From a virus (Duplodnaviria; Heunggongvirae; Uroviricota; Caudoviricetes), in IMG/VR virus record IMGVR_UViG_2563366829_000011, positions 1 through 17,320 of that record: a stretch of 17,320 nucleotides of DNA. One strand, given 5' to 3'. Positions 1 through 17,320 of this stretch are shown piece by piece. Each line of letters starts with the position of its first letter. Position 1 is the stretch's first letter. A model generated the notes under the pieces. It was not told the origin of the DNA. It worked only from the letters and a program-made list of their open reading frames with translations, and did no database searches. The position numbers were made by a program, and so were the translations under genes.

Positions 1-147
1 ATCATCAGTGTGACGACTGCGGCGGCCATCCATCCAGTCATCGGTTCGTCTGAGAATGACGTGCAACTGCGCACGCGACACCCGGAGACAACGGCTGACT
101 AAGCTTCCCCCCCATCCCCGGGCAATAAGGGCGCGTGCGTTATCCAC
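1..147 (-). CDS. insD: IS2 transposase OrfB (InsD-like), N-terminal part only; continues beyond window start
   Basis: Minus-strand frame from GTG (reverse complement of 145-147) reads [49 protein letters not shown], matching the recalled IS2 OrfB N-terminus. It overlaps the orfA 3' end in the -1 frame. Confidence 0.6.
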
Positions 148-470
148 TTTTTTGCCCGTCCATATTCAACGGCTTCTTTGAGGAGTTCATTTTCCATCGT
201 TTTCTTGCCGAGCAGGCGCTGGAGTTCTTTAATCTGCTTCATGGCGGCAGCAAGTTCAGAGGCAGGAACAACCTGTTCTCCGGCGGCGACAGCAGTAAGA
301 CTTCCTTCCTGGTATTGCTTACGCCAGAGAAATAACTGGCTGGCTGCTACACCATGTTGCCGGGCAACGAGGGAGACCGTCATCCCTGGTTCAAAGCTCT
401 GCTGAACAATTGCGATCTTTTCCTGTGTGGTACGCCGTCTGCGTTTCTCCGGTCCTAAGACATCAATCAT
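99..470 (-). CDS. insC: IS2 OrfA (InsC-like HTH protein), 123 aa
   Basis: Protein [54 protein letters not shown]... recognised as IS2 OrfA. The ORF track extends upstream into the inverted repeat; the ATG at 468-470 (minus) matches the canonical start. Confidence 0.85.
147..153 (-). other. Putative programmed -1 ribosomal frameshift slippery site (AAAAAAG on minus strand) joining IS2 orfA to orfB
   Basis: Minus-strand sequence GGCAAAAAAGTGGATA lies at the orfA/orfB overlap. IS3-family elements use A6G slippery heptamers (established knowledge). Confidence 0.5.
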
Positions 471-561
471 CTGCTCTCCAATGACTAGTCTAAAAACTAG
501 TATTAAGACTATCACTTAAATAAGTGATATTGGTTGTCTGGTGATTCAGGGGGCCAGTCTA

Positions 562-1010
562 CTTGGATTATCCAGGTAAAGCGTTTCTCCATGCAGCAGT
601 TCATTCCGGTAGTTTAAGATATCGCTATAACGAATATGTGATATCGGGGTACTTTCACAAATTATTATTCTGAGTGTTTTTAATTGTGATTTCGTTTTCT
701 TCATTGTGTTTGTTGTTAACTCTGTCTCTTTAATTTTTGTCCAGATATCACAAAGCTCTCCGAACGTTTTTATGACTCTCGTTGTCACCATTTTTGCCCC
801 AGTGCTGGACTGGGGAAAACGTCTTAAATACTCAAATTCACCGGAGTTTATTTCATGAACTATCAGCGCTCTTAAATTTCCGGCCTTTTTAATATTACTG
901 TTTGTAATCTCCCAGCCTTTTAATGTTTCCCGACATCGTTTTCCTCGAAACATGAACCAGATGCGAATGTATCTACCTCTAATCTCGACACCTGTTGGTA
1001 ATTTAGACAT
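562..1010 (-). pseudogene. intR: Rac-type prophage integrase, N-terminal 149 codons only (arm-binding domain); 3' part removed by the IS2 insertion
   Basis: Translation MSKLPTGVEIRGRYIRIWFMFRGKRCRETLKGWEITNSNIKKAGNLRALIVHEINSGEFEYLRRFPQSS... matches the IntR N-terminus from memory. The frame runs into the IS2 end, adding the IS-derived residues SRLAP before a stop. Confidence 0.85.
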
Positions 1011-1011
1011 A

Positions 1012-1227
1012 TCATGAGTCTTTGATAAACTGATTTATCTTTGGATAGTTGTACCAGATAATCCCTCGTTTGCTGTCTGGCTTACCTAAAGGAGATACTC
1101 GTTTGAAGTGGAAGCCCTCCACCCAACAGTTCTGGCGGTATGCTTCAATTTGTCTGGCCCCCAGACCAGTGCGAAGCATCAGGCCGTATTCAACCATCCA
1201 CTCTTCATTAAAGATTACTTGTGCCAT
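1012..1227 (-). CDS. xisR: Excisionase-like protein (XisR/YdaQ), 71 aa
   Basis: [80 protein letters not shown] lies upstream of the ATG at 1225-1227 (minus). Sits immediately upstream of int, as in Rac. Confidence 0.8.
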
Positions 1228-1278
1228 CGCATCACCTCTGGCAGGCGCCAATGTTAGACTGAAATTGACGCCCGATGT

Positions 1279-1294
1279 TGATTATTAATAATCA
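1279..1294. repeat. Perfect 16 bp AT-rich palindrome TGATTATTAATAATCA between ydaC stop and xisR start
   Basis: Seen directly; the sequence is its own reverse complement. It lies about 52-67 bp upstream of the xisR start codon. Confidence 0.6.
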
Positions 1295-1305
1295 GCTATG
1301 AAGTT

Positions 1306-1515
1306 TTAATTTGAATACAATGCAATTCTCGAGGACTGAAGTTTCTCGCAATTAAAATTTATCAGTTTTACTTTCTGCTCTCTGGAAACGCCTGCTTCTT
1401 TTTTACCTGAGAGCATTTTTTCGCATTCTGATTTCGTTAGTTTAGATTTTGAATATCTTGTCCAGTTAGTAGGAGTGCCACCTTCCTTTTCAATAGTGGC
1501 GGTAATTTTATACAT
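1306..1515 (-). CDS. ydaC: YdaC-like small protein, 69 aa
   Basis: MYKITATIEKEGGTPTNWTRYSKSKLTKSECEKMLSGKKEAGVSREQKVKLINFNCEKLQSSRIALYSN. Strong SD GGAGGTG precedes the ATG at 1513-1515 (minus). The ORF-track start further upstream was rejected. Confidence 0.75.
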   Translation of the reverse strand: MYKITATIEKEGGTPTNWTRYSKSKLTKSECEKMLSGKKEAGVSREQKVKLINFNCEKLQSSRIALYSN

Positions 1516-1702
1516 GAACACCTCCATTATTATTTCCAGTGGTTCGTTTATTCCATCTTTCGAGTGCTTCTTTTTCACTTCCACCATAACCGGTTCGGGA
1601 TTCGCATCCGTTACACTTCGCTCGGTAATATCCTGAAATGGCTTTCACCGTTACTGATGGACAACCACAAAATGGACATGGTTTAACATTGTCATATCTC
1701 AT
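1508..1702 (-). CDS. ralR: Restriction-alleviation protein Lar/RalR, 64 aa, Cys-rich
   Basis: MRYDNVKPCPFCGCPSVTVKAISGYYRAKCNGCESRTGYGGSEKEALERWNKRTTGNNNGGVHV, recognised as Rac Lar/RalR. An alternative upstream ATG at 1714 lacks an SD. Confidence 0.85.
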   Translation of the reverse strand: MRYDNVKPCPFCGCPSVTVKAISGYYRAKCNGCESRTGYGGSEKEALERWNKRTTGNNNGGVHV

Positions 1703-1730
1703 AATTTTTCTCATAAAAAATATTTCAAGT

Positions 1731-1751
1731 TGGCGGTGCATTACACCGCCA
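1731..1751 (-). other. Stem-loop (8 bp stem TGGCGGTG/CACCGCCA, 5 nt loop) between recT stop and ralR start
   Basis: Seen directly. On the minus-strand transcript it follows the recT stop codon and is followed about 13 nt later by a U6 run. Confidence 0.4.
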
Positions 1752-1758
1752 GGCTGAA

Positions 1759-2568
1759 TTATTCCTCTGAATTATCGATTACACTGTATTCCCCGGTTAA
1801 TACAGAGGAATCTGCAGGATCGATTGTCAGTGGTTCCTTTTCATCCATTGATACTGCACGCTGGATCTCAATTGATACGGGCAGATATTTGAACAGGCGA
1901 CGAATAGCCGTTTTCTTTGCCATTTCTTCCCAGTGAGTTACCCACGGCCCGTTATTACCAGCTTTACTCAGGCTGCGCACCAGCTCAATCTGTTTGCGCG
2001 TCATAACTTCAAACTGAGTACCTCCGTCTTTCAGTCTTGCGACAGCATAGACGTGGGTAACCGGGGCATCTTCGTTTTCTCCCGGGCGGTGTATTAACTT
2101 TTCATCAAGGCCAAATTCGAAGCTAAACTCGTCACCTTCACGGACAACACGGGCTGACAGGCTGGCGATTTGACCAGAACGGCGAGCCAGATCAATCATG
2201 CCGCGATAGCCAATGATTAGCTGAACGTTCTTTTTACCGCTCTTTTCGTTTTTATTACCAAAAGGCAGTAAATATGCATGACCGAGGGCGCTACCTGGCT
2301 CAAGTCCGAGCTGTGAACACTGTACGATCGCACTGACAAAACTCATAGTGTCACAGTTTCCTAACGCCGGAACTTTACGAATTTCTGTAGTGGCGATACG
2401 GATCATACGTTCAGCCGTCATATGGCGTGGAAGAGCTGCTGCCAGTTGCTCTTTCATTGATGGCTGGTTAATAAAACTAATCACGTCGCTATTTTTAACT
2501 GCTGCTGGTGCACGGTTTCCCTGAGTTTTTTGCAGATCGGCTTTTGCGATTGGTGGTTGCTTAGTCAT
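1759..2568 (-). CDS. recT: RecT single-strand annealing recombinase, 269 aa
   Basis: [66 protein letters not shown]... matches RecT. SD AAGGAA lies upstream of the ATG at 2566-2568 (minus). The start overlaps the recE stop by 8 nt. Confidence 0.95.
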
Positions 2569-5161
2569 TTGCATATTCCTTAGCCCAGCGGGGCAGTGAT
2601 AATGTCTTAATAGCTGGCCATTCATCGGTATTCAGGCAGTCAGACAGGGTTCGCAGATTGCGGTGATATTCCTGTTGACCTGCCAGTTTTGCTTCTTCGC
2701 CCATCATGAAAATTTCAACCGGATAACGTCCGCATTCAATAGTTGTGCTGGCAACCAGAAAAACGAAAGTTGGCTGCACTCCAAACAGTGCTTCATAACC
2801 GTCACTGTAGAATGCATCCTGAACGTGATAGCGGTAGTCGTAATAAGCGGTTTTGAATCGTTGAATATCCGCCGTAGTTTTCACGTCCATGATCCAGTGA
2901 AATTCAGGGATAATTTTGTCCGGACGGCACCGACACAAAATTCCTGTTTCAGGATCTTCCCAGTAAATTGATGATTCAGCGTGTCCGGCGCTTTCAACAA
3001 GCCATTGCCCCAGCGGCAAAGCCATAACGCTTTGATACATGAGTTCAATTTTCCGGCCTTCTTCCGCAGTGATAACCGTTTTTCCTGTGCTTGCGCATTC
3101 CATCAGAAACGCTTTCTCTTCTTCTTTTCCGGCGTTTGTACGGCGGTTAAATTCAGGTGCTACGATAAAGCGGTTACTGAATTCTTCCGGTTCAAGTACC
3201 CGGCAGTGGAAAGCAGTTCCTAAATCGAGCGTTTTTGTCTTTGTGGTGTCCACGGGGGCATTTTTACGCCACAAATATAGTGCCGGAGTATCAGCAATGT
3301 CATCGAGCTGAGACTTACTGATACCGGGACCCGCGTGGTAATTCTCATTCGAAATTCCGTAATAAATACCTGGCTCTATGTCTTCTACGATTACGGGATC
3401 TGCGACTTCGCCAGTTTCATCACTGCAATCGTGATGCGGATCGCTGCCAGCATTCTCATTGTGCGGATGTTCAGCGCCTTCCATTTCCTCCGGATCATTT
3501 TCCTTAGCTTCAACCTGACTCTCTTCATCGAATGTTTCCTGGTATGTTGCGTCGCCCATCACCGCACCACAGTCAGGGCAGTTATCCCCGCCAGTCTGGC
3601 CGCAGGCATTGCAGGCTATTTCCGGTTCCTGTTGCACTACTGGCTCAGGTTGATTCATATCTGGGCTGGTTTTTTCCGTTTCTGGCTGGTTCTGGTACAC
3701 ACAATCGCGAGTCTGGATCCCCTTTACCCATTTCGGATCGTTCGGGTCGCTAATTCCGTCAACAAATTCACCACGTGATGCAGCAAGCAATTTATCGGCA
3801 TCGACAGGATTTTTTGATGGAATGTTTTTCCGGGCTTCATGGAGTTCTGCCCGCAGTTCCTGATATTTCGCATCAACAGAATTTACCTGTGACTGAGCAT
3901 CCAGCGGCTGCGTGTCCTGATGATGTTCAGTTGCGTCCGGTTCCATTGTTTCAGCCTCTCCCTGTTCAACTGCCGTTGTTCCAGATGGTTGCGGTTTTTC
4001 TTCATCATCCTGTTTTCCTTCTTCTGTTACTCGCTGCGGCATCGGGGCAGAGGAGCGACCGCAGGCAATATCCACGATTTCCGGATCAGGGTTGGCATGA
4101 TCGGTTTCAGTCAGTACTTTGTTCAGATATTCAGTGACGTGCGCGGGGATGACCTCGATCCCAATTGGTGCTTCTTTTACGGACGCAACCACGATGGCGC
4201 GGGAATAATCCAGCCCGCCAGGCATGGTGATGAATTTGTCGCGGAAAACAGAAAAGGGCGGTTTATTTTCAGCGATAATTTCCTCAATGCGTTTAGCGTG
4301 TGCCGGATGAAGGTTATAGATGTCCAGATCCATTGAACGGGCCAGTACGCCAGTGGCTACGTCGCGCGCCAGTGACGTCAGATCGTGTACGAAACCTTCG
4401 CCGCGATCGGTGAGGTTTCCGCCGCCAGCATTAGCACCGGAAGCCGTGCGAGTGATGTGTGAAACACGATTACCCTTCATCCACTCTTTTGTCAGCAGTC
4501 CTCGATCGGTGTAGTCAGCGTTCAGGTATGCTTCGAAAAAAGCAGTTATCAGTCCCAGGTTTGAATTACCAGGATTAGGGAAAACTTTGTCAGTGTCACG
4601 AACCAGTTTGTGGAGTTCGCGAATTTCCAGCGGGTCGAGCAGGCTGGTTTTGTGGGAAACAGCCAGGGCAGTAACAGCCGGTAGTTCTTCAGCCCGAGCA
4701 ATGTGTAATGCCTGGAGTCCGTCGCGTGAAACGTGCGTTACCGGTTTTTCGCTGCCGTGTTGAGCAAGCCAACGAATGGGCAGTTCCTGGCCAGAAATTG
4801 GGAGTAGCATATTCTCCTCAATCTCAGTCATGTCTTCGCCGTTGACGTTGGTATTGCCTTGATAATGAGCGTTGTCTGGTGCTGCTCCCGGTTTTAGTTC
4901 CCATGTCATGGAGTCTTTGCTGAGTTGATAGCGTTCACTCCAGGTAAAATCGATCTCACCTTCAGCGGGCAGGTCATTAACGACAGGAAAATTCGTGGCA
5001 ACAGCTTTAAAATAGCTGCTCAGTTTTTTACCTGACTTAACGATCAGGTAGTCCAGAGTGGCACAGGTCGATTCAAAATCGTTGCTTGCCCACAGGACGA
5101 CGTCAGGTTCACCGGATGATTTTTTCGCTTTCCGTAACAGGAAGAGTGGTTTTGTGCTCAT
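2561..5161 (-). CDS. recE: RecE exonuclease VIII, 866 aa
   Basis: 866 aa [49 protein letters not shown]... recognised as full-length RecE. SD GAGG lies upstream. Confidence 0.95.
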
Positions 5162-5232
5162 TGTTTTTTAACCTCAACTCAGATTAAAATTCGTTTTGTT
5201 CAGTGAATGATCTTGCCGGATACACACTGTTC

Positions 5233-5263
5233 ATAGCCTGCGCCATACGCAGGCTATTTCTTT
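5233..5263 (+). other. Hairpin (10 bp stem ATAGCCTGCG/CGCAGGCTAT, loop CCATA) followed by a T-rich tract on the plus strand, in the racC-recE spacer
   Basis: Seen directly at 5233-5257, followed by TTCTTTC. In the plus orientation it looks like an intrinsic terminator; on the minus (gene) strand it is a stable stem immediately after the racC stop with no U tract. Confidence 0.4.
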
Positions 5264-5538
5264 CAGATTTCACCTTTTAATTTCATTGCAATTAGAGTTG
5301 CCAGAAATTCGGCTTTTTTTTCTGCGGGCAGATTCTTTCCGATATGCACCAGGCACATTTTTTTGACACCTTCATCAAGTGTTTTTACGTTGCCTGATGG
5401 ACCATCGATATCAACCACAGTGAATGGGGTTTCTTTATTTTCTGTTTTAATTACGTAGCCAATGCGCTTTCCTTCCAGATTCACCTCGTGAACAATGTCA
5501 TCGGTAGTTACAACAGTGGCTTCATAATTGGTAATCAT
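5263..5538 (-). CDS. racC: RacC, 91 aa
   Basis: MITNYEATVVTTDDIVHEVNLEGKRIGYVIKTENKETPFTVVDIDGPSGNVKTLDEGVKKMCLVHIGKNLPAEKKAEFLATLIAMKLKGEI. SD AGGAG precedes the ATG at 5536-5538 (minus). Confidence 0.85.
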   Translation of the reverse strand: MITNYEATVVTTDDIVHEVNLEGKRIGYVIKTENKETPFTVVDIDGPSGNVKTLDEGVKKMCLVHIGKNLPAEKKAEFLATLIAMKLKGEI

Positions 5539-5612
5539 GTTTTTCTCCTTAATTAAGGTTGAGCGAATACCTGCCATTTCTGGCATAAATTCAGTTTCGA
5601 ATAGTCAATTAA

Positions 5613-5783
5613 TTAAAGTTCATGTGCCATCTGGTCTTTTTCGGCACAAGCTTCACTGCAATATTTTCTCGGTTCGTCTTTTGATAAAATCCCGTGCATG
5701 AAGTGAAGCATTCTTTCAATAGCTTTGCTTTCTTCAACGTCTTTTTTGCAAAGGTGGTAAGCACATTTTGTTTTCTTAGTCAT
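5613..5783 (-). CDS. ydaE: YdaE-like small Cys-rich (zinc-binding type) protein, 56 aa
   Basis: Below the ORF-track size cutoff. Minus-strand translation [62 protein letters not shown] upstream; the start overlaps the kilR stop (TGATG). Confidence 0.8.
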   Translation of the reverse strand: MTKKTKCAYHLCKKDVEESKAIERMLHFMHGILSKDEPRKYCSEACAEKDQMAHEL

Positions 5784-6004
5784 CACCATGACTCCGCCTT
5801 TACAGGTAAACCATCACAACCGAGGAAGACTTTAATCATGCGGTCAGTAATGCATGTTTTTGTGGTCAGGTTACGAATATATAGTTTTCGCTTTTTAATA
5901 TTGTTTGCCGAGGCAATATATGTCCGGCCTTCATGAAGAACATAATCGCCAGGAGTCACACACTGACGTGGTATTTCATCAGTTCCGAAGTGATGTGCAA
6001 TCAT
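5783..6004 (-). CDS. kilR: KilR, Rac cell-division inhibitor, 73 aa
   Basis: [79 protein letters not shown] lies 6 nt upstream of the ATG at 6002-6004 (minus); the ORF-track start at 6016 has no SD. Confidence 0.85.
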
Positions 6005-6176
6005 AATTATCTCCATTTTTACAAATGAACTTTGTTGATGCGGTGTCTGGTGCCTCCAGGTGACTGCAACCAGTTAACAATTACAGTCGGCTTTCCCACC
6101 CAAACCAATAAGGACTAACATGACTTTTAACTGTGCCACGTGCGCTTAGCCGCATTCACCGCATCACAAAATTCAC

Positions 6177-6227
6177 TTTAAAAAGGGCGGACATCAGCCG
6201 AACTTCAAGAAAAAAACTGATGCCGCC
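6177..6227 (-). terminator. Candidate intrinsic terminator for leftward transcription upstream of kilR: 11 bp stem with one bulge, 19 nt loop, then U5 on the minus strand
   Basis: Arms GGCGGACATCAG (6186-6197) and CTGATGCCGCC (6217-6227). Minus-strand RNA after the stem reads CUUUUUAAAG. The long loop weakens the call. Confidence 0.3.
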
Positions 6228-6383
6228 AGGACTACACACAGCAATGTCGTTATTTACAACCGGAGGCGCACTCCCACCATTTAAATTTAACAGACAAGAC
6301 CGACTCTTTATGGATATCGGAAATGCGCCTTCGTGTTGTGCCCGGTTTTATTTCACCACCTCCGGGCTTCGGTGGTCTCGGCT

Positions 6384-6430
6384 ATACCCCTACAGCGAGA
6401 GCTTGTGTTAACATTTCAATACCCTTACAG
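6384..6430 (+). promoter_or_regulatory. Direct repeat ATACCC(C/T)TACAG x2 (6384-6395 and 6419-6430) immediately upstream of sieB; possible promoter or operator
   Basis: Seen directly, 11 of 12 identical, 35 bp apart, ending 16 bp before the sieB ATG. A TTGTGT -35-like hexamer lies between the copies. Confidence 0.3.
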
Positions 6431-6445
6431 TTGAGAGTTATTGAT

Positions 6446-6934
6446 ATGTTGGATGTATTTACTCCATTGTTGAAACTTTTTGCTAACGAGCCACTCGAAA
6501 GACTTATGTATACGATTATCATTTTTGGTCTCACTCTCTGGCTGATACCGAAAGAGTTTGCTGTCGCATTCAATGCTTATACTGAAATACCCTGGCTCTT
6601 TCAGATTATCGTTTTTGCCTTTTCTTTCGTGGTCGCTATTTCCTTCTCAAGATTGCGAGCACATATTCAAAAGCATTATTCATTGCTACCAGAGCAACGA
6701 GTATTGCTTCGTTTATCTGAGAAAGAAATCGCTGTATTTAAAGATTTCCTTAAAACAGGAAATCTTATTATCACTTCTCCTTGCCGTAACCCGGTTATGA
6801 AAAAATTAGAACGGAAGGGCATCATTCAACATCAGAGTGATAGCGCAAACTGTTCTTATTATCTCGTCACCGAAAAATACTCCCACTTTATGAAGTTATT
6901 CTGGAACAGCAGGAGCAGGCGTTTTAATCGTTAG
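6446..6934 (+). CDS. sieB: SieB superinfection-exclusion protein, 162 aa, predicted membrane protein
   Basis: MLDVFTPLLKLFANEPLERLMYTIIIFGLTLWLIPKEFAVAFNAYTEIPWLFQIIVFAFSFVVAISFS... with hydrophobic segments. SD GAGAG lies upstream of the ATG at 6446. The ORF-track start at 6323 was rejected. Confidence 0.85.
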   Translation: MLDVFTPLLKLFANEPLERLMYTIIIFGLTLWLIPKEFAVAFNAYTEIPWLFQIIVFAFSFVVAISFSRLRAHIQKHYSLLPEQRVLLRLSEKEIAVFKDFLKTGNLIITSPCRNPVMKKLERKGIIQHQSDSANCSYYLVTEKYSHFMKLFWNSRSRRFNR

Positions 6935-7086
6935 CTTACTGTGTGCTTCTCCAACCATCGTCGTGCGCCAGCTTCGGTTTTAAACGTTTTGCTTTTGGTA
7001 TACGTCATGGCAGTGAACGTTCCATCCTGGTTGGGGAACACGCCGCACACCAGGGATTCGTTATTGCCGAGGTCGATTTTTTGCAT
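6931..7086 (-). CDS. ydaF: YdaF-like small protein, 51 aa
   Basis: Below the ORF-track cutoff. Minus-strand translation MQKIDLGNNESLVCGVFPNQDGTFTAMTYTKSKTFKTEAGARRWLEKHTVS. SD GAGGTG upstream. Confidence 0.75.
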   Translation of the reverse strand: MQKIDLGNNESLVCGVFPNQDGTFTAMTYTKSKTFKTEAGARRWLEKHTVS

Positions 7087-7096
7087 TTTTCGCACC

Positions 7097-7231
7097 TCAC
7101 ATCTTGTTGTTGCGGATAGAGGCTTCTGCCTGCCAGAGATCCCAGTCGTTGCTGCGTAGAGCCTGTACAGCCTGGCTGTAAGTGATATCGCAACAATCCA
7201 TCAAATACTGAACTACTTCGTAATGCACCAT
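7097..7231 (-). CDS. ydaG: YdaG-like small protein, 44 aa
   Basis: MVHYEVVQYLMDCCDITYSQAVQALRSNDWDLWQAEASIRNNKM. SD GGGGAGAG lies upstream of the ATG at 7229-7231 (minus). Confidence 0.75.
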   Translation of the reverse strand: MVHYEVVQYLMDCCDITYSQAVQALRSNDWDLWQAEASIRNNKM

Positions 7232-7404
7232 CTTATCTCTCCCCTTAACGCCGGGTGGCGGAACTGAAACCTGCTGCACTGCAAAATCTGAACCCTGCCG
7301 TCATGTTCATACGCCTCGGGCTGGCTACTTAACCCCTGACCACTGCCTGGTAACTCGAAGTATTGCCCTGCGTTCTGTGGGGCGGGGTGGGTTGGTAGGT
7401 ATAT

Positions 7405-7446
7405 GATGTACTTTGTGTTCATTGATGTAAAGTACTTTAAGTACAT
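7405..7446. promoter_or_regulatory. Operator-like cluster downstream of racR and upstream of ydaG: ATGTACT at 7406, AAGTACT at 7430 (24 bp later), and a 13 bp palindrome GTACTTTAAGTAC at 7432-7444
   Basis: Seen directly. The same ATGTACT 7-mer pair with 24 bp spacing recurs in the racR-ydaS spacer. The position corresponds to the pL/oL region of a lambdoid immunity region (inference). Confidence 0.4.
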
Positions 7447-7521
7447 TTTGTGTGTAAAAAAATGAGATGGGATAAAGTGAAGCACAAACCCGGAGGGGGG
7501 AGCTACCGGATTTATGCTGGT

Positions 7522-7941
7522 TTAAGAGGCTTTTTGTTTTTTCTTTCGTGCTAACTCTTCGTAAATTGCATTGTACTTCTGTTTTTTCTCCTCAAGAGTT
7601 TTTAAAAGTTCATCTGTCTCACTGTCAGGGAGCTCGTCCAGAAGGTCAATGATGATTTTTTGTCTTGGATTTAACTCCTGATAGAAACGTACCTGTCCAC
7701 TTTCTTCTGTATCCTCTCCCAAAAGATAGGTTGGTGTTGTTCCAATGAGTGTTGCTAATTCCCTTAATTTCTCTCGGCGAGGAATTGTTTCGCCATTAAA
7801 CCATTTGCTAACCGCTTTTGGTGTTAATTTCATTCGACGGGCAATTTCTGCCTGCCTTCCATGTTGTTCATAACCAGCGTTTTCACAGGCTAGCGCAAGC
7901 CTACTGGCGAACTCTTTACGCGCTTTATCTTCATGAACCAT
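7522..7941 (-). CDS. racR: RacR prophage repressor (HTH, cI-like), 139 aa in this frame
   Basis: MVHEDKARKEFASRLALACENAGYEQHGRQAEIARRMKLTPKAVSKWFNGETIPRREKLRELATLIGTTPTYLLGEDTEE... An HTH lies in the N-terminal half. Divergent from ydaS. Confidence 0.9.
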   Translation of the reverse strand: MVHEDKARKEFASRLALACENAGYEQHGRQAEIARRMKLTPKAVSKWFNGETIPRREKLRELATLIGTTPTYLLGEDTEESGQVRFYQELNPRQKIIIDLLDELPDSETDELLKTLEEKKQKYNAIYEELARKKKQKAS

Positions 7942-8020
7942 AAGTTCAATGATATTCGCTCTTGAATGTACTGTCAGTTCTGTTATACCATGTACTCAAA
8001 GTTCACATTGTGAGGGTGAT
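7942..8020. promoter_or_regulatory. racR-ydaS divergent promoter/operator region with two ATGTACT motifs (7966-7972, 7990-7996) 24 bp apart
   Basis: Predicted minus-strand promoter CTGACA (7972-7977), 17 bp spacer, TATCAT (7949-7954), ending 7 nt before the racR ATG. Predicted plus-strand promoter TTGAAT (7962-7967), 16 bp spacer, TATACC (7984-7989) toward ydaS. SD GAGGG precedes ydaS. Hexamers identified by eye. Confidence 0.5.
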
Positions 8021-8275
8021 ATGAACCAGAAAACACTTGAAGATGTAATCAAAACTGTTCGCGTTTCTGTTGTGGCCGACGTTTGTGGTGTCAGCCAAAG
8101 AGCAATCTACAAATGGATGGATAACGGAAAATTGCCTCGCACAGAATATACCGGCGAAACAAATTACGCTGAAAAAATCGCTCATGCATCAAACGGATTA
8201 TTTTCTGCCGATGTAATTTTAACTATTGGCAGAAATAAAACTACTACGAAAAAGCTGATGGGAGTTGATTCATGA
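8021..8275 (+). CDS. ydaS: YdaS (Cro/HTH-like small protein), 84 aa from the SD-supported start
   Basis: MNQKTLEDVIKTVRVSVVADVCGVSQRAIYKWMDNGKLPRTEYTGETNYAEKIAHASNGLFSADVILTIGRNKTTTKKLMGVDS. SD GAGGG lies 7 nt upstream of the ATG at 8021. The upstream in-frame ATG at 7949 lacks an SD and lies in the operator region. Confidence 0.8.
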   Translation: MNQKTLEDVIKTVRVSVVADVCGVSQRAIYKWMDNGKLPRTEYTGETNYAEKIAHASNGLFSADVILTIGRNKTTTKKLMGVDS

Positions 8276-8694
8276 AAATCAAGCATGAGCACATCGAGTC
8301 AGTGTTGTTAGCCCTGGCAGCCGAAAAAGGGCAGGCATGGGTAGCCAATGCCATTACTGAAGAATATCTGCGCCAGGGGGGCGGCGAATTGCCCCTGGTA
8401 CCAGGCAAGGACTGGAATAATCAGCAGAACATCTATCACCGTTGGTTAAAAGGTGAAACGGAAGCGCAAAGGGAAAAAATTCAGAAACTGATCCCTGCAA
8501 TTCTGGCAATCCTTCCGCGCGAGCTGCGTCACCGACTCTGCATCTTCGATACCCTGGAACGCCGTGCATTACTGGCGGCGCAGGAAGCGTTAAGTACGGC
8601 AATTGATGCGCATGATGATGCAGTCCAGGCCGTTTACCGGAAAGCGCATTTCAGCGGCGGCGGGTCTTCCGACGATTCTGTCATTGTTCATTAA
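8272..8694 (+). CDS. ydaT: YdaT, 140 aa
   Basis: MKIKHEHIESVLLALAAEKGQAWVANAITEEYLRQGGGELPLVPGKDWNNQQNIYHRWLKGETEAQREKIQKLIPAILAILPRELRHRLCIFDTLERR... The start overlaps the ydaS stop (ATGA). Confidence 0.85.
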   Translation: MKIKHEHIESVLLALAAEKGQAWVANAITEEYLRQGGGELPLVPGKDWNNQQNIYHRWLKGETEAQREKIQKLIPAILAILPRELRHRLCIFDTLERRALLAAQEALSTAIDAHDDAVQAVYRKAHFSGGGSSDDSVIVH

Positions 8695-8706
8695 GCAAAA
8701 GTTTCC

Positions 8707-8917
8707 ATGCTGTTTGTGCTTATTCTAAGCAACCGGGCAGCATCATACGGGGCAATTATGGCCGCATTACCATACATGCAACTGTACATAGCTGATTATC
8801 TGGCTGACACCATGCATTTGTCAGCAGAGGAGCATGGTGCGTATTTGTTGCTGATGTTCAATTACTGGCAAACAGGAAAGCCAATACCTAAAAACAGGCT
8901 GGCAAAAATTGCCCGTC
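8707..8917 (+). pseudogene. ydaU: YdaU-like (DUF1376-type) gene, 5' fragment only, interrupted by IS629 at 8918
   Basis: ...[52 protein letters not shown] then continues into IS629-derived codons. The true start may be the ATG at 8758. Confidence 0.65.
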
Positions 8918-8971
8918 TGAACCGCCCCGGGAATCCTGGAGACTAAACTTCCTGAGAAAGAGGTAAACAGG

Positions 8972-9298
8972 ATGACTAAAAATACTCGTTTTTCCCCCGA
9001 AGTCCGTCAACGGGCAGTCCGTATGGTTCTGGAAAGTCAGAGCGAATATGACTCACAATGGGCGACAATTTGTTCCATTGCTCCAAAGATTGGCTGTACG
9101 CCGGAGACTCTGCGTGTCTGGGTTCGCCAGCATGAGCGGGATACCGGGGGCGGTGATGGAGGGCTCACCACCGCTGAACGTCAGCGTCTGAAAGAGCTGG
9201 AACGTGAAAATCGTGAACTGCGCCGCAGTAACGATATCCTTCGCCAGGCTTCCGCTTATTTTGCGAAGGCGGAGTTCGACCGCCTCTGGAAAAAATGA
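8972..9298 (+). CDS. IS629 transposase OrfA (HTH), 108 aa
   Basis: [61 protein letters not shown]... recognised as IS629/IS3-family OrfA. Confidence 0.9.
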
Positions 9299-10185
9299 TG
9301 CCACTGCTGGATAAGCTGCGTGAGCAGTACGGGGTCGGACCGCTATGCAGCGAACTGCATATTGCCCCGTCAACGTATTACCACTGTCAGCAACAGCGAC
9401 ATCATCCGGATAAACGCAGTGCCCGTGCGCAGCTCGATGACTGGCTGAAGAAAGAGATACAGCGCGTATACGATGAAAATCACAAGGTATACGGTGTGCG
9501 TAAAGTCTGGCGTCAGTTGTTACGGGAAGGTATCAGAGTGGCCAGATGCACTGTGGCACGTCTCATGGCGGTTATGGGACTTGCCGGTGTTCTCCGGGGT
9601 AAAAAGGTCCGTACGACCATCAGCCGGAAAGCCGTTGCCGCAGGCGACCGCGTAAACCGTCAGTTCGTGGCAGAACGACCTGACCAGCTGTGGGTGGCTG
9701 ATTTTACTTACGTCAGCACATGGCGGGGCTTCGTCTATGTGGCGTTCATCATTGATGTGTTTGCCGGATACATCGTGGGGTGGCGGGTCTCATCGTCCAT
9801 GGAAACGACATTCGTGCTGGATGCACTGGAGCAGGCGTTATGGGCCCGTCGACCGTCCGGCACGGTCCATCACAGTGATAAAGGTTCTCAGTATGTATCG
9901 CTGGCCTACACACAGCGGCTTAAGGAAGCCGGATTACTGGCATCAACAGGAAGTACAGGCGACTCGTATGACAACGCGATGGCGGAGAGCATCAATGGTC
10001 TTTACAAAGCGGAGGTAATACACCGTAAGAGCTGGAAAAACCGTGCAGAAGTGGAACTGGCCACACTCACGTGGGTGGACTGGTATAACAATCGACGATT
10101 GCTGGAAAGGCTGGGCCATACTCCTCCGGCAGAAGCAGAAAAAGCTTATTATGCTTCCATCGGAAACGATGATCTGGCAGCCTGA
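9295..10185 (+). CDS. IS629 transposase OrfB (DDE/RNase H-fold catalytic domain), 296 aa
   Basis: [37 protein letters not shown]...[34 protein letters not shown]...[10 protein letters not shown]...[15 protein letters not shown], a typical IS3-family integrase core. Confidence 0.9.
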
Positions 10186-10227
10186 GTTCACAGATAAAAC
10201 ACTCTCCAGGAAACCCGGGGCGGTTCA

Positions 10228-12072
10228 ATTGCGACTTATAACCAGATTAAGGCGCTACAGGATGAAGGGAACCAGCAGGAGGCCGCCCGCATTGCGACAG
10301 AAGCATACTCATCCTCAATGATCCAGCGCACCAACCAGATTAAAGAAAATCTTGGTTATCTTGAGACTGCATGGAAAGCTGTCGCAGACTCCGCAAAATG
10401 GGCATGGGATTCCATGCTGGATATTGGCCGTGAGGCCTCCCTTGATCAAAAAATCTCAGATGTTCTCCGTCAAATTGATGAAATAGAAAAAAATACCCGC
10501 CCCGGAGTTTTCGGGTTAGGTGGCATTGGAGATGGCGGAGCTCAAAATAAAAGGCTGGCACGATTAAAGCAGCAATTGGGCGTACTTCAAGCAGAAAAAA
10601 TTGCTCAGGACGTACTAAATTCATCAATAAACGATTACAACAAGCGACAACAGGAAGGAATTGAACTCAGACAGAGAGCAGATGCCTTTTCAAAACAATA
10701 TCAGACCCGGGAGCAGCAGAGAGCTAGTGAACTTGCAAAACTGGAAAAACTAAAGAGTCAGTATTCAAAGGAAGAATATAATAATCTTATCGCTCAAATA
10801 AATGAGCGTTATAAAGATCCAAAGCAACCAAAGGCGAAAGGTTATTCGGATGATGCTGCCCAACGAATGATTGATCATCTGAATCAACAGAATGCGTTAC
10901 TAAGTTCACAAACTGAATTAACCGTTAAATTAAGTTCCTCTGAACAGGAACTGGTTAAGTGGCGTCAGCAGATTGCCGACCTGGAGTCACGACCGTCATC
11001 GAAATTAACCAAGGATCAGAAATCGCTTCTCTTACACCGGGAAGAAATAACCGCGTTGATGGAGAAAAATGTTGCGATTGAAAAAAATAACAGGCTAATC
11101 AAGGAATCCGCCGAAATAGCTGCATGGCGTGATTCATTGCAGGCTTCGATTGATAATCGTCAACAGGGGTATGATATTCAGATTGCTGGTTATGGGGTTG
11201 GCGATAAAAATCAGCAACGCCAGCAGGAATTACTGCGGATTGAACGTGAATATAACAATCAGCGTCTGCAACTTGAACGTGACTATGCAGATAAATCCCG
11301 TGGGATGTCAAATCATGTTTTTCAGGAGAAAATGCAGGCTCTGAATGATGCTCTGGAACGAGAAAAAGAAATTGTCAGACAGAAAAACGAGCAGCTCGAT
11401 ATTCAGGCAGGAGACTGGGTTAGTGGTGCCTCCCAGGGATTCAATAACTGGCTGGATGACACTAAGGATATCAGTGAGCAGATAAAATCAACCACGACTC
11501 AGATGTTTGATGGAATGACCGATGCGCTGGGTGATTTTGTCACGACAGGCAAAGCAAATTTTCGTTCTTTCGCTACTTCCGTGATTTCGGATCTTAGTCG
11601 AATAGCATTAAAGGCTTCAATTACTGGGATTTTCGACAGCATTAGTAACAGTTCTTCTGGGGGGATTTTAGGAACTATCGGGAGTGCTATTAGTAAATTT
11701 ATTCCGAATGCAAAGGGCGGTGTTTATGAGTCTCCGTCATTGAACACGTATTCGAACGGTATTTATGATTCCCCGCAATTTTTTGCTTTTGCAAGAGGGG
11801 CTGGTGTTTTTGGTGAGGCTGGTCCGGAAGCCATTATGCCATTAACACGAACTTCCGATGGTTCTCTTGGTGTCAGAGCTGTTAATAGTAAAAGTGGTAA
11901 TGGAGGCGGAGATATTACCTATGCCCCTGTATACCAAATCACTATTCAAAATGACGGCCAGAATGGAGAGATTGGCCCTCAGGCAATAAAAGCACTTATG
12001 GGGATGGTTGATCAGCGGGTGCAGGGCAATCTGTTAAATATGCGACGTGATGGGGGAATGTTAAGTGGCTAA
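10228..12072 (+). pseudogene. Lambda H-like tail tape-measure protein, 5'-truncated by IS629; C-terminal about 614 codons retained
   Basis: The frame is open from inside the IS629 end through 12072. Product is Q/E/K-rich and coiled-coil-like with a Gly-rich C-terminus (FAFARGAGVFGEAGPEAIMPLTR...). Identified by position immediately upstream of M-L-K-I-J homologues. Confidence 0.8.
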
Positions 12073-14449: not shown

Positions 14450-17113
14450 ATGGGTAAAGGCAGCAGTAAGGGGCATACCCCGCGCGAAGCGAAGGACAAC
14501 CTGAAGTCCACGCAGCTGCTGAGTGTGATCGATGCCATCAGCGAAGGGCCGGTTGAAGGTCCGGTGGATGGATTAAAAAGCGTGCTGCTGAACAGTACGC
14601 CGGTGCTGGACAGTGAGGGGAATACCAATATATCCGGCGTCACGGTGGTGTTCCGGGCCGGTGAGCAGGAGCAGACACCGCCGGAGGGATTTGAATCCTC
14701 CGGCTCCGAGACGGTGCTGGGTACGGAAGTGAAGTACGACACGCCGATTACCCGGACCATCACGTCGGCAAACATCGACCGTCTGCGCTTTACCTTCGGT
14801 GTGCAGGCACTGGTGGAAACCACCTCAAAGGGGGACCGGAATCCGTCGGAAGTCCGCCTGCTGGTTCAGATACAGCGTAATGGTGGCTGGGTGACGGAAA
14901 AAGACATCACCATTAAAGGCAAAACCACCTCACAGTATCTGGCATCGGTGGTGGTGGGTGACCTGCCGCCGCGTCCGTTCAATATCCGGATGCGCAGGAT
15001 GACGCCGGACAGCACCACAGACCAGCTGCAGAACAAAACGCTCTGGTCGTCATACACCGAAATCATCGATGTGAAACAGTGCTACCCGAACACGGCACTG
15101 GTCGGCGTACAGGTGGATTCGGAGCAGTTCGGCAGCCAGCAGGTGAGCCGTAATTATCATCTGCGCGGGCGTATTCTGCAGGTGCCGTCGAACTATAACC
15201 CGCAGACTCGGCAATACAGCGGTATCTGGGACGGAACGTTTAAGCCAGCATACAGCAATAACATGGCCTGGTGTCTGTGGGATATGCTGACCCATCCACG
15301 CTACGGCATGGGGAAACGTCTTGGTGCGGCGGATGTGGACAAATGGGCGCTGTATGTCATCGGCCAGTACTGCGACCAGTCAGTGCCGGACGGCTTTGGC
15401 GGCACGGAGCCGCGCATCACCTGTAATGCGTACCTGACCACACAGCGCAAGGCGTGGGATGTGCTCAGTGATTTTTGCTCGGCGATGCGCTGTATGCCGG
15501 TATGGAACGGGCAGACGCTGACGTTCGTGCAGGACCGACCGTCAGATAAGGTGTGGACCTATAACCGCAGTAATGTGGTGATGCCGGATGATGGCGCGCC
15601 GTTCCGCTACAGCTTCAGCGCCCTGAAGGACCGCCATAATGCCGTTGAGGTGAACTGGATTGACCCGGATAACGGCTGGGAGACGGCGACAGAGCTTGTT
15701 GAAGATACGCAGGCCATTGCCCGTTACGGTCGTAACGTCACGAAGATGGATGCCTTTGGCTGTACCAGCCGGGGGCAGGCACACCGCGCCGGGCTGTGGC
15801 TGATTAAAACGGAGCTGCTGGAAACGCAGACCGTGGACTTCAGCGTGGGCGCAGAAGGGCTTCGCCATGTACCGGGCGATGTCATTGAAATCTGTGATGA
15901 TGACTATGCGGGTATCAGCATCGGCGGGCGCGTGCTGGCGGTGAACAGCCAGACGCGGACGCTGACGCTCGACCGTGAAATCACGCTGCCATCCTCCGGC
16001 ATCACGCTGATAAGCCTGGTTGACGGACAGGGGAATCCGGTCAGCGTGGAGGTTCAGTCCGTCACCGACGGCGTGAAGGTAAAAGTGAGCCGTGTTCCTG
16101 GCGGTGTTGCTGAATACAGCGTATGGGGGCTGAAGCTGCCGACGCTGCGCCAGCGACTGTTCCGCTGCGTGAGTATCCGTGAGAACGACGACGGCACGTA
16201 TGCCATCACCGCCGTGCAGCATGTGCCGGAGAAAGAGGCCATCGTGGATAACGGGGCGCACTTTGACGGCGAACAGAGTGGCACGGTGAATGGTGTCACG
16301 CCGCCAGCGGTGCAGCACCTGACCGCAGAAGTCACTGCAGACAGCGGGGAATATCAGGTGCTGGCGCGATGGGACACGCCGAAGGTGGTGAAGGGCGTGA
16401 GCTTCCTGCTTCGCCTGACCGTGGCAGCGGATGACGGCAGTGAGCGGCTGGTCAGCACGGCCCGGACGACGGAAACCACATACCGCTTCACGCAACTGGC
16501 GCTGGGAAACTACAGGCTGACAGTCCGGGCGGCAAATGCCTGGGGGCAGCAGGGCGATCCGGCATCGGTATCGTTCCGTATTGCCGCACCGGCAGCGCCG
16601 TCGCGGATTGAGCTGACGCCGGGCTATTTTCAGATAACCGCCACGCCGTATCTTGCCGTTTATGATCCGACGGTACAGTTTGAGTTCTGGTTCTCGGAAA
16701 AGCGGATTGCGGATATCAGGCAGGTTGAAACCACAGCCCGCTATCTTGGCACGGCGCTGTACTGGATAGCTGCCAGTATCAATATCAAGCCGGGCCATGA
16801 TTATTATTTTTACATCCGCAGTGTGAACACCGTTGGCAAATCGGCATTCGTGGAGGCTGTTGGCCAGCCGAGTGATGATGCATCCGGCTATCTGGATTTT
16901 TTCAAAGGAGAGATAGGGAAAACCCATCTGGCTCAGGAGTTGTGGACGCAGATTGATAACGGTCAGCTTGCGCCTGACCTGGCGGAAATCAGAACGTCCA
17001 TCACGGATGTCAGTAATGAAATCACGCAGACCGTCAATAAGAAACTGGAAGACCAGAGTGCAGCGATCCAGCAGATACAGAAGGTTCAGGTTGATACAAA
17101 TAATAACCTGAAC
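14450..17113 (+). pseudogene. Lambda J-like central tail fibre/host-specificity protein, N-terminal about 888 codons; C-terminal receptor-binding part removed by IS2
   Basis: [58 protein letters not shown]... is typical of gpJ. The frame runs into the IS2 end at 17114, giving the IS-derived tail SRLAP then stop. Confidence 0.9.
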
Positions 17114-17320
17114 AGTAGACTGGCCCCCTGAATCACCAGACAACCAATATCACTTATTTAAGTGATAGTCTTAATACTAGTTTTTAGACTAGTCATTGGA
17201 GAGCAGATGATTGATGTCTTAGGACCGGAGAAACGCAGACGGCGTACCACACAGGAAAAGATCGCAATTGTTCAGCAGAGCTTTGAACCAGGGATGACGG
17301 TCTCCCTCGTTGCCCGGCAA
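17114..17320 (+). mobile_element. IS2 insertion sequence, right copy, partial (runs off window end); inverted relative to the left copy
   Basis: TAGACTGGCCCCCTGAATCACCAGACAACCAATATCACTTATTTAAGTGATAGTC... is identical to the reverse complement of 355-561. Confidence 0.9.
17206..17320 (+). CDS. insC: IS2 OrfA (InsC-like), 5' part only; continues beyond window end
   Basis: ATG at 17206; [38 protein letters not shown]... Confidence 0.8.

Follow-up and report, generated by a model that had tools for sequence, protein, structure and literature searches.

A Rac-type prophage remnant with an HK022-related cassette in place of racR-ydaS: a probable immunity switch of exchanged specificity

Related immunity switches

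In E. coli K-12, the racR gene of the Rac prophage is reported to be essential as the repressor of ydaS-ydaT (PMC5700373, PMC5700377), as the preliminary description of the locus studied here had correctly stated. The control of toxicity in K-12 is purely transcriptional (PMC5700373), and expression of ydaT is toxic (PMC11014345, PMC11879457). Depletion of the Rac repressor derepresses ydaST, kilR, xisR and intR, with toxicity arising from YdaT and escape occurring by excision (PMC11014345). YdaS and YdaT were later treated as analogues of Cro and CII and not as toxins, the toxicity being that of YdaT alone (PMC5917428, PMC8630535, PMC9986795, PMC11014345). The published YdaT-box consensus is TTGATT-N6-AATCAA, the K-12 box being ATGATTCATGAAAATCAA (PMC11879457, PMC9986795), and rcsA is under YdaT control in K-12 (PMC11879457).

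Three other systems are close to this one. The PaaR2-YdaS-YdaT locus of prophage CP-933P (E. coli O157:H7) has the layout of CI, Cro and a CII analogue with a leaderless repressor (PMC8630535, PMC9986795), and its YdaT is an activator that binds TTGATT-N6-AATCAA in a bistable system (PMC8630535, PMC9986795). Downstream of the CP-933P repressor lies the paaA2-parE2 toxin-antitoxin pair, and it is this pair, not ydaS/ydaT, that was shown to be addictive. In Qin, DicA-DicC represses dicB/dicF. DicA, a short peptidase-less XRE repressor, is an essential protein of this defective prophage and represses a division inhibitor (PMC5917428, PMC10448788). Together with the antirepressor Rem, DicA/DicC make up a bistable switch that works independently of SOS (PMC10448788). 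Phage HK022 carries its elements in the order pL/oL, cI, oR/pR and cro (X16093), followed by a λ-type cII/pE, and its repression is described as highly cooperative in a passage of PMC8053113 that cites Carlson & Little.

The locus compared here with these systems lies in a viral stretch of 17,320 nucleotides, hereafter the window. It shares with K-12 Rac the prophage location at ttcA, flanking genes that are 97-99% identical, the ydaT gene (98%), the position of the YdaT-box and the divergent repressor/cro/cII layout; however, its repressor gene, its cro gene and all its operators are not homologous to those of K-12. With HK022 it shares the order and spacing of the elements from pL/oL to cro, and it differs in having a YdaT-type CII analogue with a YdaT-box downstream of cro; nun/nutL of HK022 are absent to the left of its cassette. 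The layout is also that of CP-933P, including a repressor that is predicted to be leaderless, although paaA2-parE2 is absent at the locus. The window repressor resembles DicA in being short and without a peptidase domain, and the same cassette also occurs in dicB-type prophages; conversely, DicC is unrelated to the window's Cro-like protein, and the operators are HK022-like.

The repressor, cro and ydaT genes and their control sites

The preliminary description had reported three intact genes, racR, ydaS and ydaT. Their reading frames were confirmed at 7522-7941 (minus strand), 8021-8275 (plus strand) and 8272-8694 (plus strand), while among the names only ydaT was upheld (137/140 residues); racR and ydaS were rejected by BLASTP, Pfam and NCBIfam. 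The statement that all three have good translation signals applies to cro and ydaT, whereas the repressor gene has no Shine-Dalgarno (SD) sequence and looks leaderless.

The uninterrupted frame at 7522..7941 (minus strand) encodes a CI-type repressor of 139 aa. It was rejected as RacR, since BLASTP found 12/33 identities to K-12 RacR, all within the helix-turn-helix (HTH), and since it did not match the NCBIfam equivalog NF049929 (200-bit cut-off), on which K-12 RacR scores 244.6 bits. Its DNA-binding HTH domain is instead like that of HK022 CI (47% identity over 99 aa, E 6e-32), and its helix-3 region (TPKAVSKWFNGE) differs only slightly from that of HK022 CI (TPKAISKWFNGE). The two proteins differ at the C-terminus: Peptidase_S24, which HK022 CI matches at 2.6e-19, is absent from the window repressor (Pfam matches to HTH_3 and other HTH families only), and a DicA-like helical tail takes its place. 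Indeed, the similarity to DicA (29% identity over 112 aa, E 5e-15) includes the C-terminal helices, and the best NCBIfam match was the DicA subfamily NF007257 over residues 29-137 of 139, at 56.8 bits, which is below the 101-bit cut-off for family membership. We infer the role of the C-terminal domain from the similarity to DicA only, because the single-sequence AlphaFold model has low confidence (pLDDT 53). Phage Tritos and APEC O1 both encode a repressor with the identical amino-acid sequence.

On the opposite side, 8021..8275 (plus strand) is an intact gene for a Cro-type regulator of 84 aa. The mechanical open reading frame begins at 7949, and the ATG at 8021, preceded by the SD sequence GAGGGTGA, aligns with Met1 of HK022 Cro; the two proteins are 62% identical (E 2e-34). 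Identity with YdaS was rejected, as the similarity to K-12 YdaS is not significant (E 0.028) and PF15943 (YdaS_toxin), which K-12 YdaS matches at 2.6e-31, was not matched. DicC was rejected as well, showing no similarity.

The third gene, ydaT (8272..8694, plus strand), encodes a CII-like transcription factor of 140 aa, 137 of which are identical in K-12 YdaT (98%). It has the SD sequence GGGAG, and its start overlaps the cro stop in ATGA, a 4-bp overlap where K-12 has a 22-bp gap. The protein matches PF06254 (45.3 bits versus a cut-off of 21), carries the PHROG annotation 'CII-like activator' and has the PDB relatives 8BT1 and 3C4R. On the criteria for residues and box taken from PMC11879457 and PMC9986795, the DNA-binding residues H56, R57 and W58 and the helix residues L107 and A110, involved in tetramerisation, are conserved. 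The YdaT-box, TTGATT-CATGAA-AATCAA (8265..8282, plus strand), is a perfect inverted repeat lying across three landmarks: the stop codon of cro, the start codon of ydaT and the cassette's right boundary. Its first base is T in the window and A in K-12, and the box is kept in six related loci.

The cassette itself extends over 7398..8265 (868 bp) and comprises PL/OL, the repressor gene, PRM/OR/PR and cro. It replaces the racR-ydaS segment of K-12: the flanks are 97-99% identical to K-12 Rac, and blastn gave no alignment to K-12 Rac inside 7398-8265. At the DNA level the cassette shares ~71% identity with the immunity region of HK022, and 97.7-98.5% with phages Tritos and vB_EcoS-666R9.

The operators and promoters of the window were predicted by alignment to those of the HK022 record, where they are labelled 'potential'. 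The operator motif ATGTAC-N5-GTTC has six matches versus 0.75 expected, and five of the six flank the repressor gene, in register with the annotated oL and oR sites of HK022 (X16093), which likewise has two OL and three OR sites with ATGTAC/GTTCA half-sites. On the left, the motif scan placed the candidate site OL1 (ATGTACTTTGTGTTC; 7406..7420, plus strand) on an annotated HK022 oL, and OL2 (ATGTACTTAAAGTAC; 7432..7446, minus strand) also aligns with HK022. On the right, the predicted OR3 (7933..7947, plus strand) lies over the repressor start codon, as in HK022, and its core TGAACCATAAGTTCA recurs unchanged in the HK022 oR site with which it aligns; OR2 (ATGTACTGTCAGTTC; 7966..7980, plus strand) and OR1 (ATGTACTCAAAGTTC; 7990..8004, plus strand) were recovered by scan and HK022 alignment.

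A consensus promoter scan found PL- and PRM-like promoters. The former (7403..7431, minus strand; -35 TTTACA at 7431-7426, -10 CATCAT at 7408-7403) aligns in both hexamers with the annotated HK022 pL (X16093), and its predicted start lies approximately at the left cassette boundary. The latter (7949..7977, minus strand; -35 CTGACA, -10 TATCAT) has a -10 that ends only 7 nt upstream of the repressor ATG, so that the repressor mRNA is predicted to be leaderless, with precedents in cI and paaR2 (PMC8630535). The PR-like promoter (7962..7989, plus strand; -35 TTGAAT at 7962-7967, -10 TATACC at 7984-7989, TG before the -10) was read from the sequence and aligns with the -35 and -10 of the annotated HK022 pR; the scan missed it because of its weak -10. 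The same scan recognised no PRE-like promoter near the YdaT-box, and no intrinsic terminator was found in 7200-8750. Taken as predicted, the divergent repressor and cro genes, the three OR and two OL sites, the overlapping PRM/PR and the PL would form a lambdoid immunity region.

The reading that we consider probable is that of a Rac-type lambdoid prophage immunity (lysis/lysogeny) switch with an exchanged specificity cassette, which persists through a young left arm together with lock-in of its repressor. An HK022-related module of 868 bp would have replaced racR-ydaS and been joined to the Rac CII analogue ydaT exactly at the YdaT-box. The repressor, made from a leaderless PRM transcript, would bind operators of 17 bp (ATGTAC-N5-GTWCAT), three of them at OR and two at OL, and thereby shut both PR (cro-ydaT-ydaU') and PL (ydaG-ydaF-kilR-ydaE-racC-recET-ralR-xis). 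Cro would compete for the same operators, and YdaT, if made, may bind the YdaT-box and boost leftward transcription of the repressor, as λ CII does at PRE. Since the repressor is without the S24 autocleavage domain, RecA is not expected to act on the switch directly; induction would more likely come from an antirepressor of the DicA style or from an inherent instability of the repressor. The switch is of an already known kind, and its allele is one not previously characterised.

Damage to the remnant and intactness of the module

As described previously, several genes of the remnant are broken by insertion sequences. An IS2-like element (1-561) splits the integrase, of which an N-terminal fragment (564..1010, minus strand) is seen, the remainder being beyond the element. 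The ydaU gene (DUF1376) is broken after ~70 codons, leaving a 5' fragment (8707..8917, plus strand), by an IS629-like element of the IS3 family (8918..10227, plus strand), which contains an ALIL frameshift pseudoknot (9253-9369) and adjoins the tape-measure ORF. No target-site duplication was found around this element (GTC versus ATT), which therefore marks the joint of a deletion between ydaU and the tape-measure gene. The J ORF (14450-17131) is truncated by a second IS2-like copy (17116..17320, plus strand), which reaches the end of the window.

The contrast between an intact module and an otherwise dead prophage was nevertheless drawn too strongly. Between the IS2 and IS629 elements lie 14 annotated genes, none of them broken and 11 of them at or near 100% identity to K-12, and blastn against K-12 Rac gave 99.4% identity for window 562-7397 and 97.4% for 8266-8920. 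The intact genes include sieB, the DNase toxin gene ralR (1508..1702, minus strand; identical to K-12), whose antitoxin sRNA RalA is at 1331-1509 (plus strand; Rfam RF02694, 225 bits), and kilR, encoding an FtsZ inhibitor within the predicted PL operon (5783..6004, minus strand; 72/73 aa as in K-12). The kilR gene is also annotated in the twin strain M15. Since all 14 genes are likewise intact, the intactness of the module in the remnant is statistically unremarkable.

These figures bear on an explanation by neutral persistence, according to which the remnant is young, its three IS-associated events happened to fall elsewhere, and no selection acts in the host. The module and PL make up ~8.5% of the non-IS DNA, and the probability that three random breakpoints all miss the module is ~0.77 (arithmetic from coordinates); moreover, the racR-type cassette is as often full-length (1085/1089 genomes). 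Against this stand the precedents of K-12 and DicA, where loss of the repressor is harmful while kilR, ydaT or dicB is expressed (PMC5700373, PMC5917428, PMC10448788), and three natural repressor-less variants, described below, which had all lost promoters too. We regard purely neutral persistence as rather unlikely; as far as structure goes it can stand beside the switch reading, and it departs from that reading only on the reason why the module persists.

Distribution, natural deletions and persistence

The cassette is present in 1049 of 5426 complete E. coli genomes (19%), and it is full-length in all but two of these carriers (1047/1049). A combined query (7400-8800), representing a K-12-type ydaT with the HK022-type cassette, was at least 80% covered in 618/5426 complete E. 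coli genomes. The cassette is paired with three different YdaT-family alleles, occurs in Rac-type and Qin-type left arms, and is found in deposited phage genomes, where it is annotated CI/Cro. We rejected the full-length fraction as evidence of selection, because the racR-type cassette and ydaT (full-length in 1456/1513) behave alike and because mosaic breakpoints confound the comparison. The dN/dS that the preliminary description had proposed to check is low (repressor ~0.05, ydaT 0.07-0.10) and indicates purifying selection; however, the compared alleles include deposited phage genomes (e.g., Tritos), so that it was rejected as evidence of selection within remnants.

Such a distribution would also suit a host-beneficial domestication, in which the module gives superinfection immunity, together with sieB, against phages with HK022-type operators, and/or YdaT regulates host genes such as rcsA. 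Besides the occurrence in phages and in 19% of E. coli genomes, the nearly identical helix-3, the operator half-sites common to the window and HK022, the intact sieB and the control of rcsA by YdaT in K-12 (PMC11879457) are in keeping with it. Cross-immunity with HK022, as judged from sequence, is nevertheless uncertain, given the different C-terminal cooperativity domain and the highly cooperative HK022 repression, and a host benefit is speculative, as YdaT is silent under repression. We rate this explanation slightly below neutral persistence.

Three natural variants were examined. EC291 has a Rac remnant at ttcA in which the whole stretch from sieB to the tape-measure gene is missing. SW070919, with a left arm 99.97% identical, is missing window 4007-8915, the whole module included. 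In FELIX_MS533, a different prophage beside ompW is without the cassette repressor, OR and the 5' part of cro, and retains an intact YdaT-family gene. In these variants (n=3) the repressor was removed only together with PR and/or PL.

The preliminary description had proposed that racR-ydaS-ydaT is an addiction-like module, in which loss of the repressor frees the toxins YdaS and YdaT so that the remnant is stabilised. The essentiality of K-12 racR through ydaS-ydaT (PMC5700373, PMC5700377), the 98% identity of ydaT and a cassette almost never broken (1047/1049) speak for it. Yet neither racR nor ydaS is in the window, the K-12 toxicity has been reassigned to YdaT only, YdaS and YdaT now being regarded as counterparts of Cro and CII (PMC11014345, PMC5917428, PMC8630535), and the Rac prophage of K-12 can be removed entirely, by deletion or by excision (PMC5700373, PMC11014345). 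Furthermore, Rac remnants without the entire module exist, one of them the 99.97% identical SW070919; together with FELIX_MS533 without repressor and PR, they contradict stabilisation of the remnant by the module. Addiction demands differential stability or post-segregational killing, with loss of the module being lethal or strongly counter-selected; judged indirectly from the viable sequenced strains EC291 and SW070919, such loss would not be. This makes addiction improbable, clearly more so than the other alternatives. The three intact genes are best taken as an ordinary prophage switch under partly wrong names, not as a proven addiction module.

Within the reading of an exchanged immunity switch, the module would persist because the left arm is young throughout and shows no decay. 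Inactivation of the repressor alone would derepress the toxic YdaT, KilR and RalR, and as the integrase is broken there would be no escape by excision; the repressor could therefore be lost only together with its promoters. This narrower idea of a locked-in repressor is plausible, since ydaT, kilR and ralR would all be kept silent by that protein and since, in K-12, racR is reported to be essential and ydaT, toxic there, is 98% identical to the gene of the window. What persists would then be a repressor that cannot be lost on its own, not an addiction system protecting the remnant.

More tentatively, and with about the same modest likelihood as neutral persistence, the repressor may be a natural hybrid of a DNA-binding domain of HK022 specificity and a peptidase-less DicA-type C-terminus, conferring RecA-independent immunity against HK022-immunity phages. 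It would be a common interchangeable allele (that 19% of genomes) plugging into several YdaT-type CII genes through the YdaT-box as a shared recombination joint, and in the present strain, with its integrase broken, it would be truly essential, with no excision escape.

The main value of these results is a correction. The genes found where racR/ydaS would lie in Rac-like prophages are often different ones, so that essentiality and toxicity should not be transferred from K-12 by position alone; here, K-12 genetics is not directly transferable because a heteroimmune HK022-type repressor/cro cassette lies in that place. Strains that pair a K-12-type ydaT with the HK022-type cassette were described in an earlier survey as 'ydaT without racR, IGR lost' (PMC5700373); what they carry is an entire alternative switch, acquired by exchange. 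The locus is a natural system for studying how the CII-type activator YdaT works with heterologous repressor cassettes and how peptidase-less CI repressors are induced, and for asking if a broken integrase makes a prophage repressor inescapably essential to its host.

Gene identity and the exchanged cassette

A Rac-type prophage remnant inserted at ttcA makes up the window. E. coli M15 (NZ_CP185789) matches it from end to end at 99.9% identity, and the RefSeq annotation of this strain guided that of the window genes. The module, previously described as racR-ydaS-ydaT, was confirmed in the window sequence as three uninterrupted ORFs: a leftward one for a 139-aa helix-turn-helix (HTH) protein (the repressor, 7522-7941), and two rightward ones for an 84-aa HTH protein (Cro-like, 8021-8275) and a 140-aa protein (8272-8694). 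The name ydaT is correct for the last gene, with 137 of 140 residues matching K-12 YdaT, while the other two names are wrong. The repressor has only 12 of 33 residues in common with K-12 RacR, all inside the HTH, and does not match the NCBIfam RacR equivalog, which K-12 RacR matches at 245 bits. Similarly, the 84-aa protein gave a pairwise E value of 0.028 against K-12 YdaS and no match to PF15943, which K-12 YdaS matches at 2.6e-31.

The DNA alignment to K-12 Rac covers 562-7397 at 99.4% and 8266-8920 at 97.4% identity, and between 7397 and 8266 it detected no similarity of the 868 bp present here to the 1059-bp racR-ydaS stretch of K-12. As judged from this alignment, the replaced 868 bp represent a classic lambdoid immunity-cassette exchange. 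Divergence from K-12 Rac grows nearer the cassette (6446-7397 and 8272-8694), with 7 nucleotide differences in sieB, 6 in ydaF, 9 in ydaG and 15 in ydaT, and 0-4 from xisR to kilR, which suggests an imported recombination tract that was longer than the non-homologous core and reached past it.

The phage collection search returned four deposited phage genomes (Tritos and three vB_EcoS phages) 97.7-98.5% identical to the cassette, and the HK022 immunity region at ~71%. In the Tritos record the cassette genes are labeled "CI repressor" and "Cro". The latter (Tritos 6557-6883) is a longer, 108-aa ORF (window 7949-8275) whose first codon precedes the PR promoter. RefSeq and the HK022 Cro alignment back the start at 8021 (84 aa), and the Tritos record probably overstates the length of Cro. 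HK022 Cro is 62% identical to the 84-aa protein (E 2e-34), and HK022 CI is 47% identical to repressor residues 1-99, with a nearly identical helix 3 (TPKAVSKWFNGE in the repressor, TPKAISKWFNGE in HK022 CI). Unlike HK022 CI, the window repressor carries no Peptidase_S24 domain; its C-terminal third is DicA-like, the match to this Qin prophage protein being 29% identity over 112 aa (E 5e-15). DicA is also the repressor's best NCBIfam subfamily, with a score under the cut-off. The single-sequence structure model of the repressor had a confidence too low for use (pLDDT 53).

Operators, promoters and predicted regulation

Six sites in the window fit the motif ATGTAC-N5-GTTC with at most one mismatch, compared with an expectation of 0.75, and five of the six flank the repressor gene: two on its left (7406-7420 and 7432-7446) and three in the 79-bp divergent intergenic region (7933-7947, 7966-7980 and 7990-8004). 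In the alignment these five operator-like sites correspond, position by position, to the two oL and three oR sites that HK022 record X16093 labels "potential repressor binding sites"; the pL and pR hexamers of HK022 also align with the window. The end of a PRM-like promoter (CTGACA-17-TATCAT) lies 7 nt upstream of the repressor ATG, which has no Shine-Dalgarno upstream, so the repressor mRNA is predicted to be leaderless; λ cI and paaR2 are precedents (PMC8630535). In the predicted PR -10, position 7988 is C in the window (TATACC) and G (TATAGC) in four other carriers, including Tritos and O157:H7; the change is lineage-specific.

On the left, a PL-like promoter (7431-7403, TTTACA-17-CATCAT) has its predicted transcription start no more than 1-2 bases from the cassette boundary. 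On the right, the perfect inverted repeat TTGATT-CATGAA-AATCAA (8265-8282) covers the stop codon of cro together with the start of ydaT, and coincides with the consensus published for YdaT recognition; the box footprinted in K-12 is ATGATTCATGAAAATCAA, and residues H56, R57, W58, L107 and A110, required for YdaT binding or tetramerisation, are conserved in the window (PMC11879457, PMC9986795). The cassette thus appears to carry exactly the specificity determinants (OL, repressor, OR and cro), spliced to shared flanks at what look like functional joints. The repressor start region (7922-7940, minus strand, TGGTTCATGAAGATAAAGC) resembles the YdaT-box region (8266-8284, TGATTCATGAAAATCAAGC), the two forming an inverted repeat (I1) that is 84% complementary; the resemblance could reflect a second, weak YdaT site overlapping PRM/OR3 or be due to chance.

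YdaS and YdaT have been recast as Cro and CII analogues (PMC5917428, PMC8630535, PMC9986795), and YdaT turns on repressor transcription from its box and also acts on host rcsA (PMC11879457). For the window allele, we infer that the repressor, bound to OR and OL, would silence both PR (cro-ydaT-ydaU') and PL (ydaG to xis, kilR and ralR included), that Cro would counteract it at the same sites, and that YdaT would be a CII-like positive input through its box. Since the repressor has no S24 domain, induction would be RecA-independent, through an antirepressor or repressor instability, as reported for DicA (PMC10448788).

Distribution and conservation of the cassette

Among 5426 complete E. coli genomes, the HK022-type cassette matched 1049 (1047 full-length or ≥80% covered), the K-12 racR-ydaS cassette 1089 (1085) and K-12-type ydaT 1513 (1456); the cassette joined to K-12-type ydaT matched 2220 by any part of the query and 618 full-length or ≥80% covered. 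The cassette is found in Rac-type left arms with kilR and sieB (O157:H7, O169:H41) and in Qin-type left arms with dicB and dicF (APEC O1, S19-141, phage Tritos), paired with three YdaT-family alleles of 140, 141 and 183 aa. Six of the loci examined, each with the cassette or its remnant, have a perfect YdaT box at their junction, which is absent from the 87%-identity cassette variant.

The dN/dS was ~0.05 for the repressor (against the 87% variant, which differs by 38 synonymous and 12 non-synonymous changes), 0.07-0.10 for ydaT and 0.2-0.5, on few sites, for cro. By these values the genes are functional; because the alleles include deposited phage genomes, selection inside dead remnants is not demonstrated by them.

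Damage to the remnant and loss of the repressor in natural variants

The insertion sequence damage already reported for this prophage is real, with the integrase, ydaU and J all hit. An IS2-like copy (1-561, minus strand) splits the integrase, and a second, inverted one (17116-17320, plus strand) truncates J; the pair brackets all 16.5 kb of the remnant, an arrangement that could permit inversion or movement as one composite unit. After ~70 codons ydaU is cut by an IS629-like element (8918-10227), which abuts a tape-measure ORF. No target duplication was found at the ends of this element (GTC on the left, within 8915-8920; ATT on the right, within 10225-10230), so it marks a deletion joint between these two genes, where replication, lysis, packaging and head genes have been removed. 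The module is intact, as the preliminary description stated, but the contrast with its surroundings was overstated: none of the 14 genes annotated between the IS2 and IS629 elements is broken, 11 (xisR to ydaG) encode proteins with 100% or nearly 100% identity to those of K-12, and the module with the PL promoter makes up ~8.5% of the non-IS DNA, so that by our arithmetic three random breakpoints would miss it ~77% of the time. The remnant also holds a genuine toxin-antitoxin system, separate from the immunity module: the type I pair ralR/RalA sRNA (1331-1702), intact and identical to K-12 (Rfam RF02694, 225 bits).

The module had been proposed to stabilise the remnant through an addiction-like function. 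The literature account behind this was correct, racR of K-12 being deletable only in combination with loss of ydaS-ydaT or of the intergenic region (PMC5700373, PMC5700377); later work changes the picture and assigns toxicity to YdaT alone (PMC11014345). The addictive element of CP-933P is the paaA2-parE2 pair (PMC8630535), which is absent from the window. Natural variants speak against any stabilising function. The EC291 Rac remnant at ttcA lacks the equivalent of window 6879-11064, that is, the sieB 3' end, PL, repressor, cro, ydaT and ydaU, and keeps intact intR, xisR, ralR, recET and kilR. The deletion is clean (EC291 locus, 7385-8818), its IS-free joint linking the sieB 3' end with the interior of the tape-measure gene; neither a repressor nor PL accompanies the retained kilR and ralR. 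SW070919, with a left arm 99.97% identical to the window, is missing 4007-8915, including the whole module, and has the same IS629 left end joined to recE at 4006, apparently through an additional IS-adjacent deletion in a sibling lineage. In FELIX_MS533, within a different prophage adjoining ompW, an IS1-associated deletion removed OR, the cassette repressor and 5' cro sequence, leaving an intact, now promoter-less YdaT-family gene.

In all three variants the repressor was lost together with PR and/or PL, which fits a lock-in of the repressor, losable only with its promoters, and not a module protecting linked DNA. Such a lock-in, based on ydaT and kilR, is plausible, but an addiction function that keeps the remnant in place is not. 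In K-12, escape from RacR depletion occurs by Rac excision through IntR/XisR (PMC11014345); with the integrase destroyed this route is unavailable, so repressor-only loss should be more strictly lethal here than in K-12.

The locus belongs to a well-known type of system, the heteroimmune lambdoid immunity region, of which it is a common allele. Its main value is to correct the positional annotation of the genes standing in the place of racR and ydaS; also of value is the hybrid architecture of the repressor, which joins an HK022-type DNA-binding domain to a DicA-type tail.
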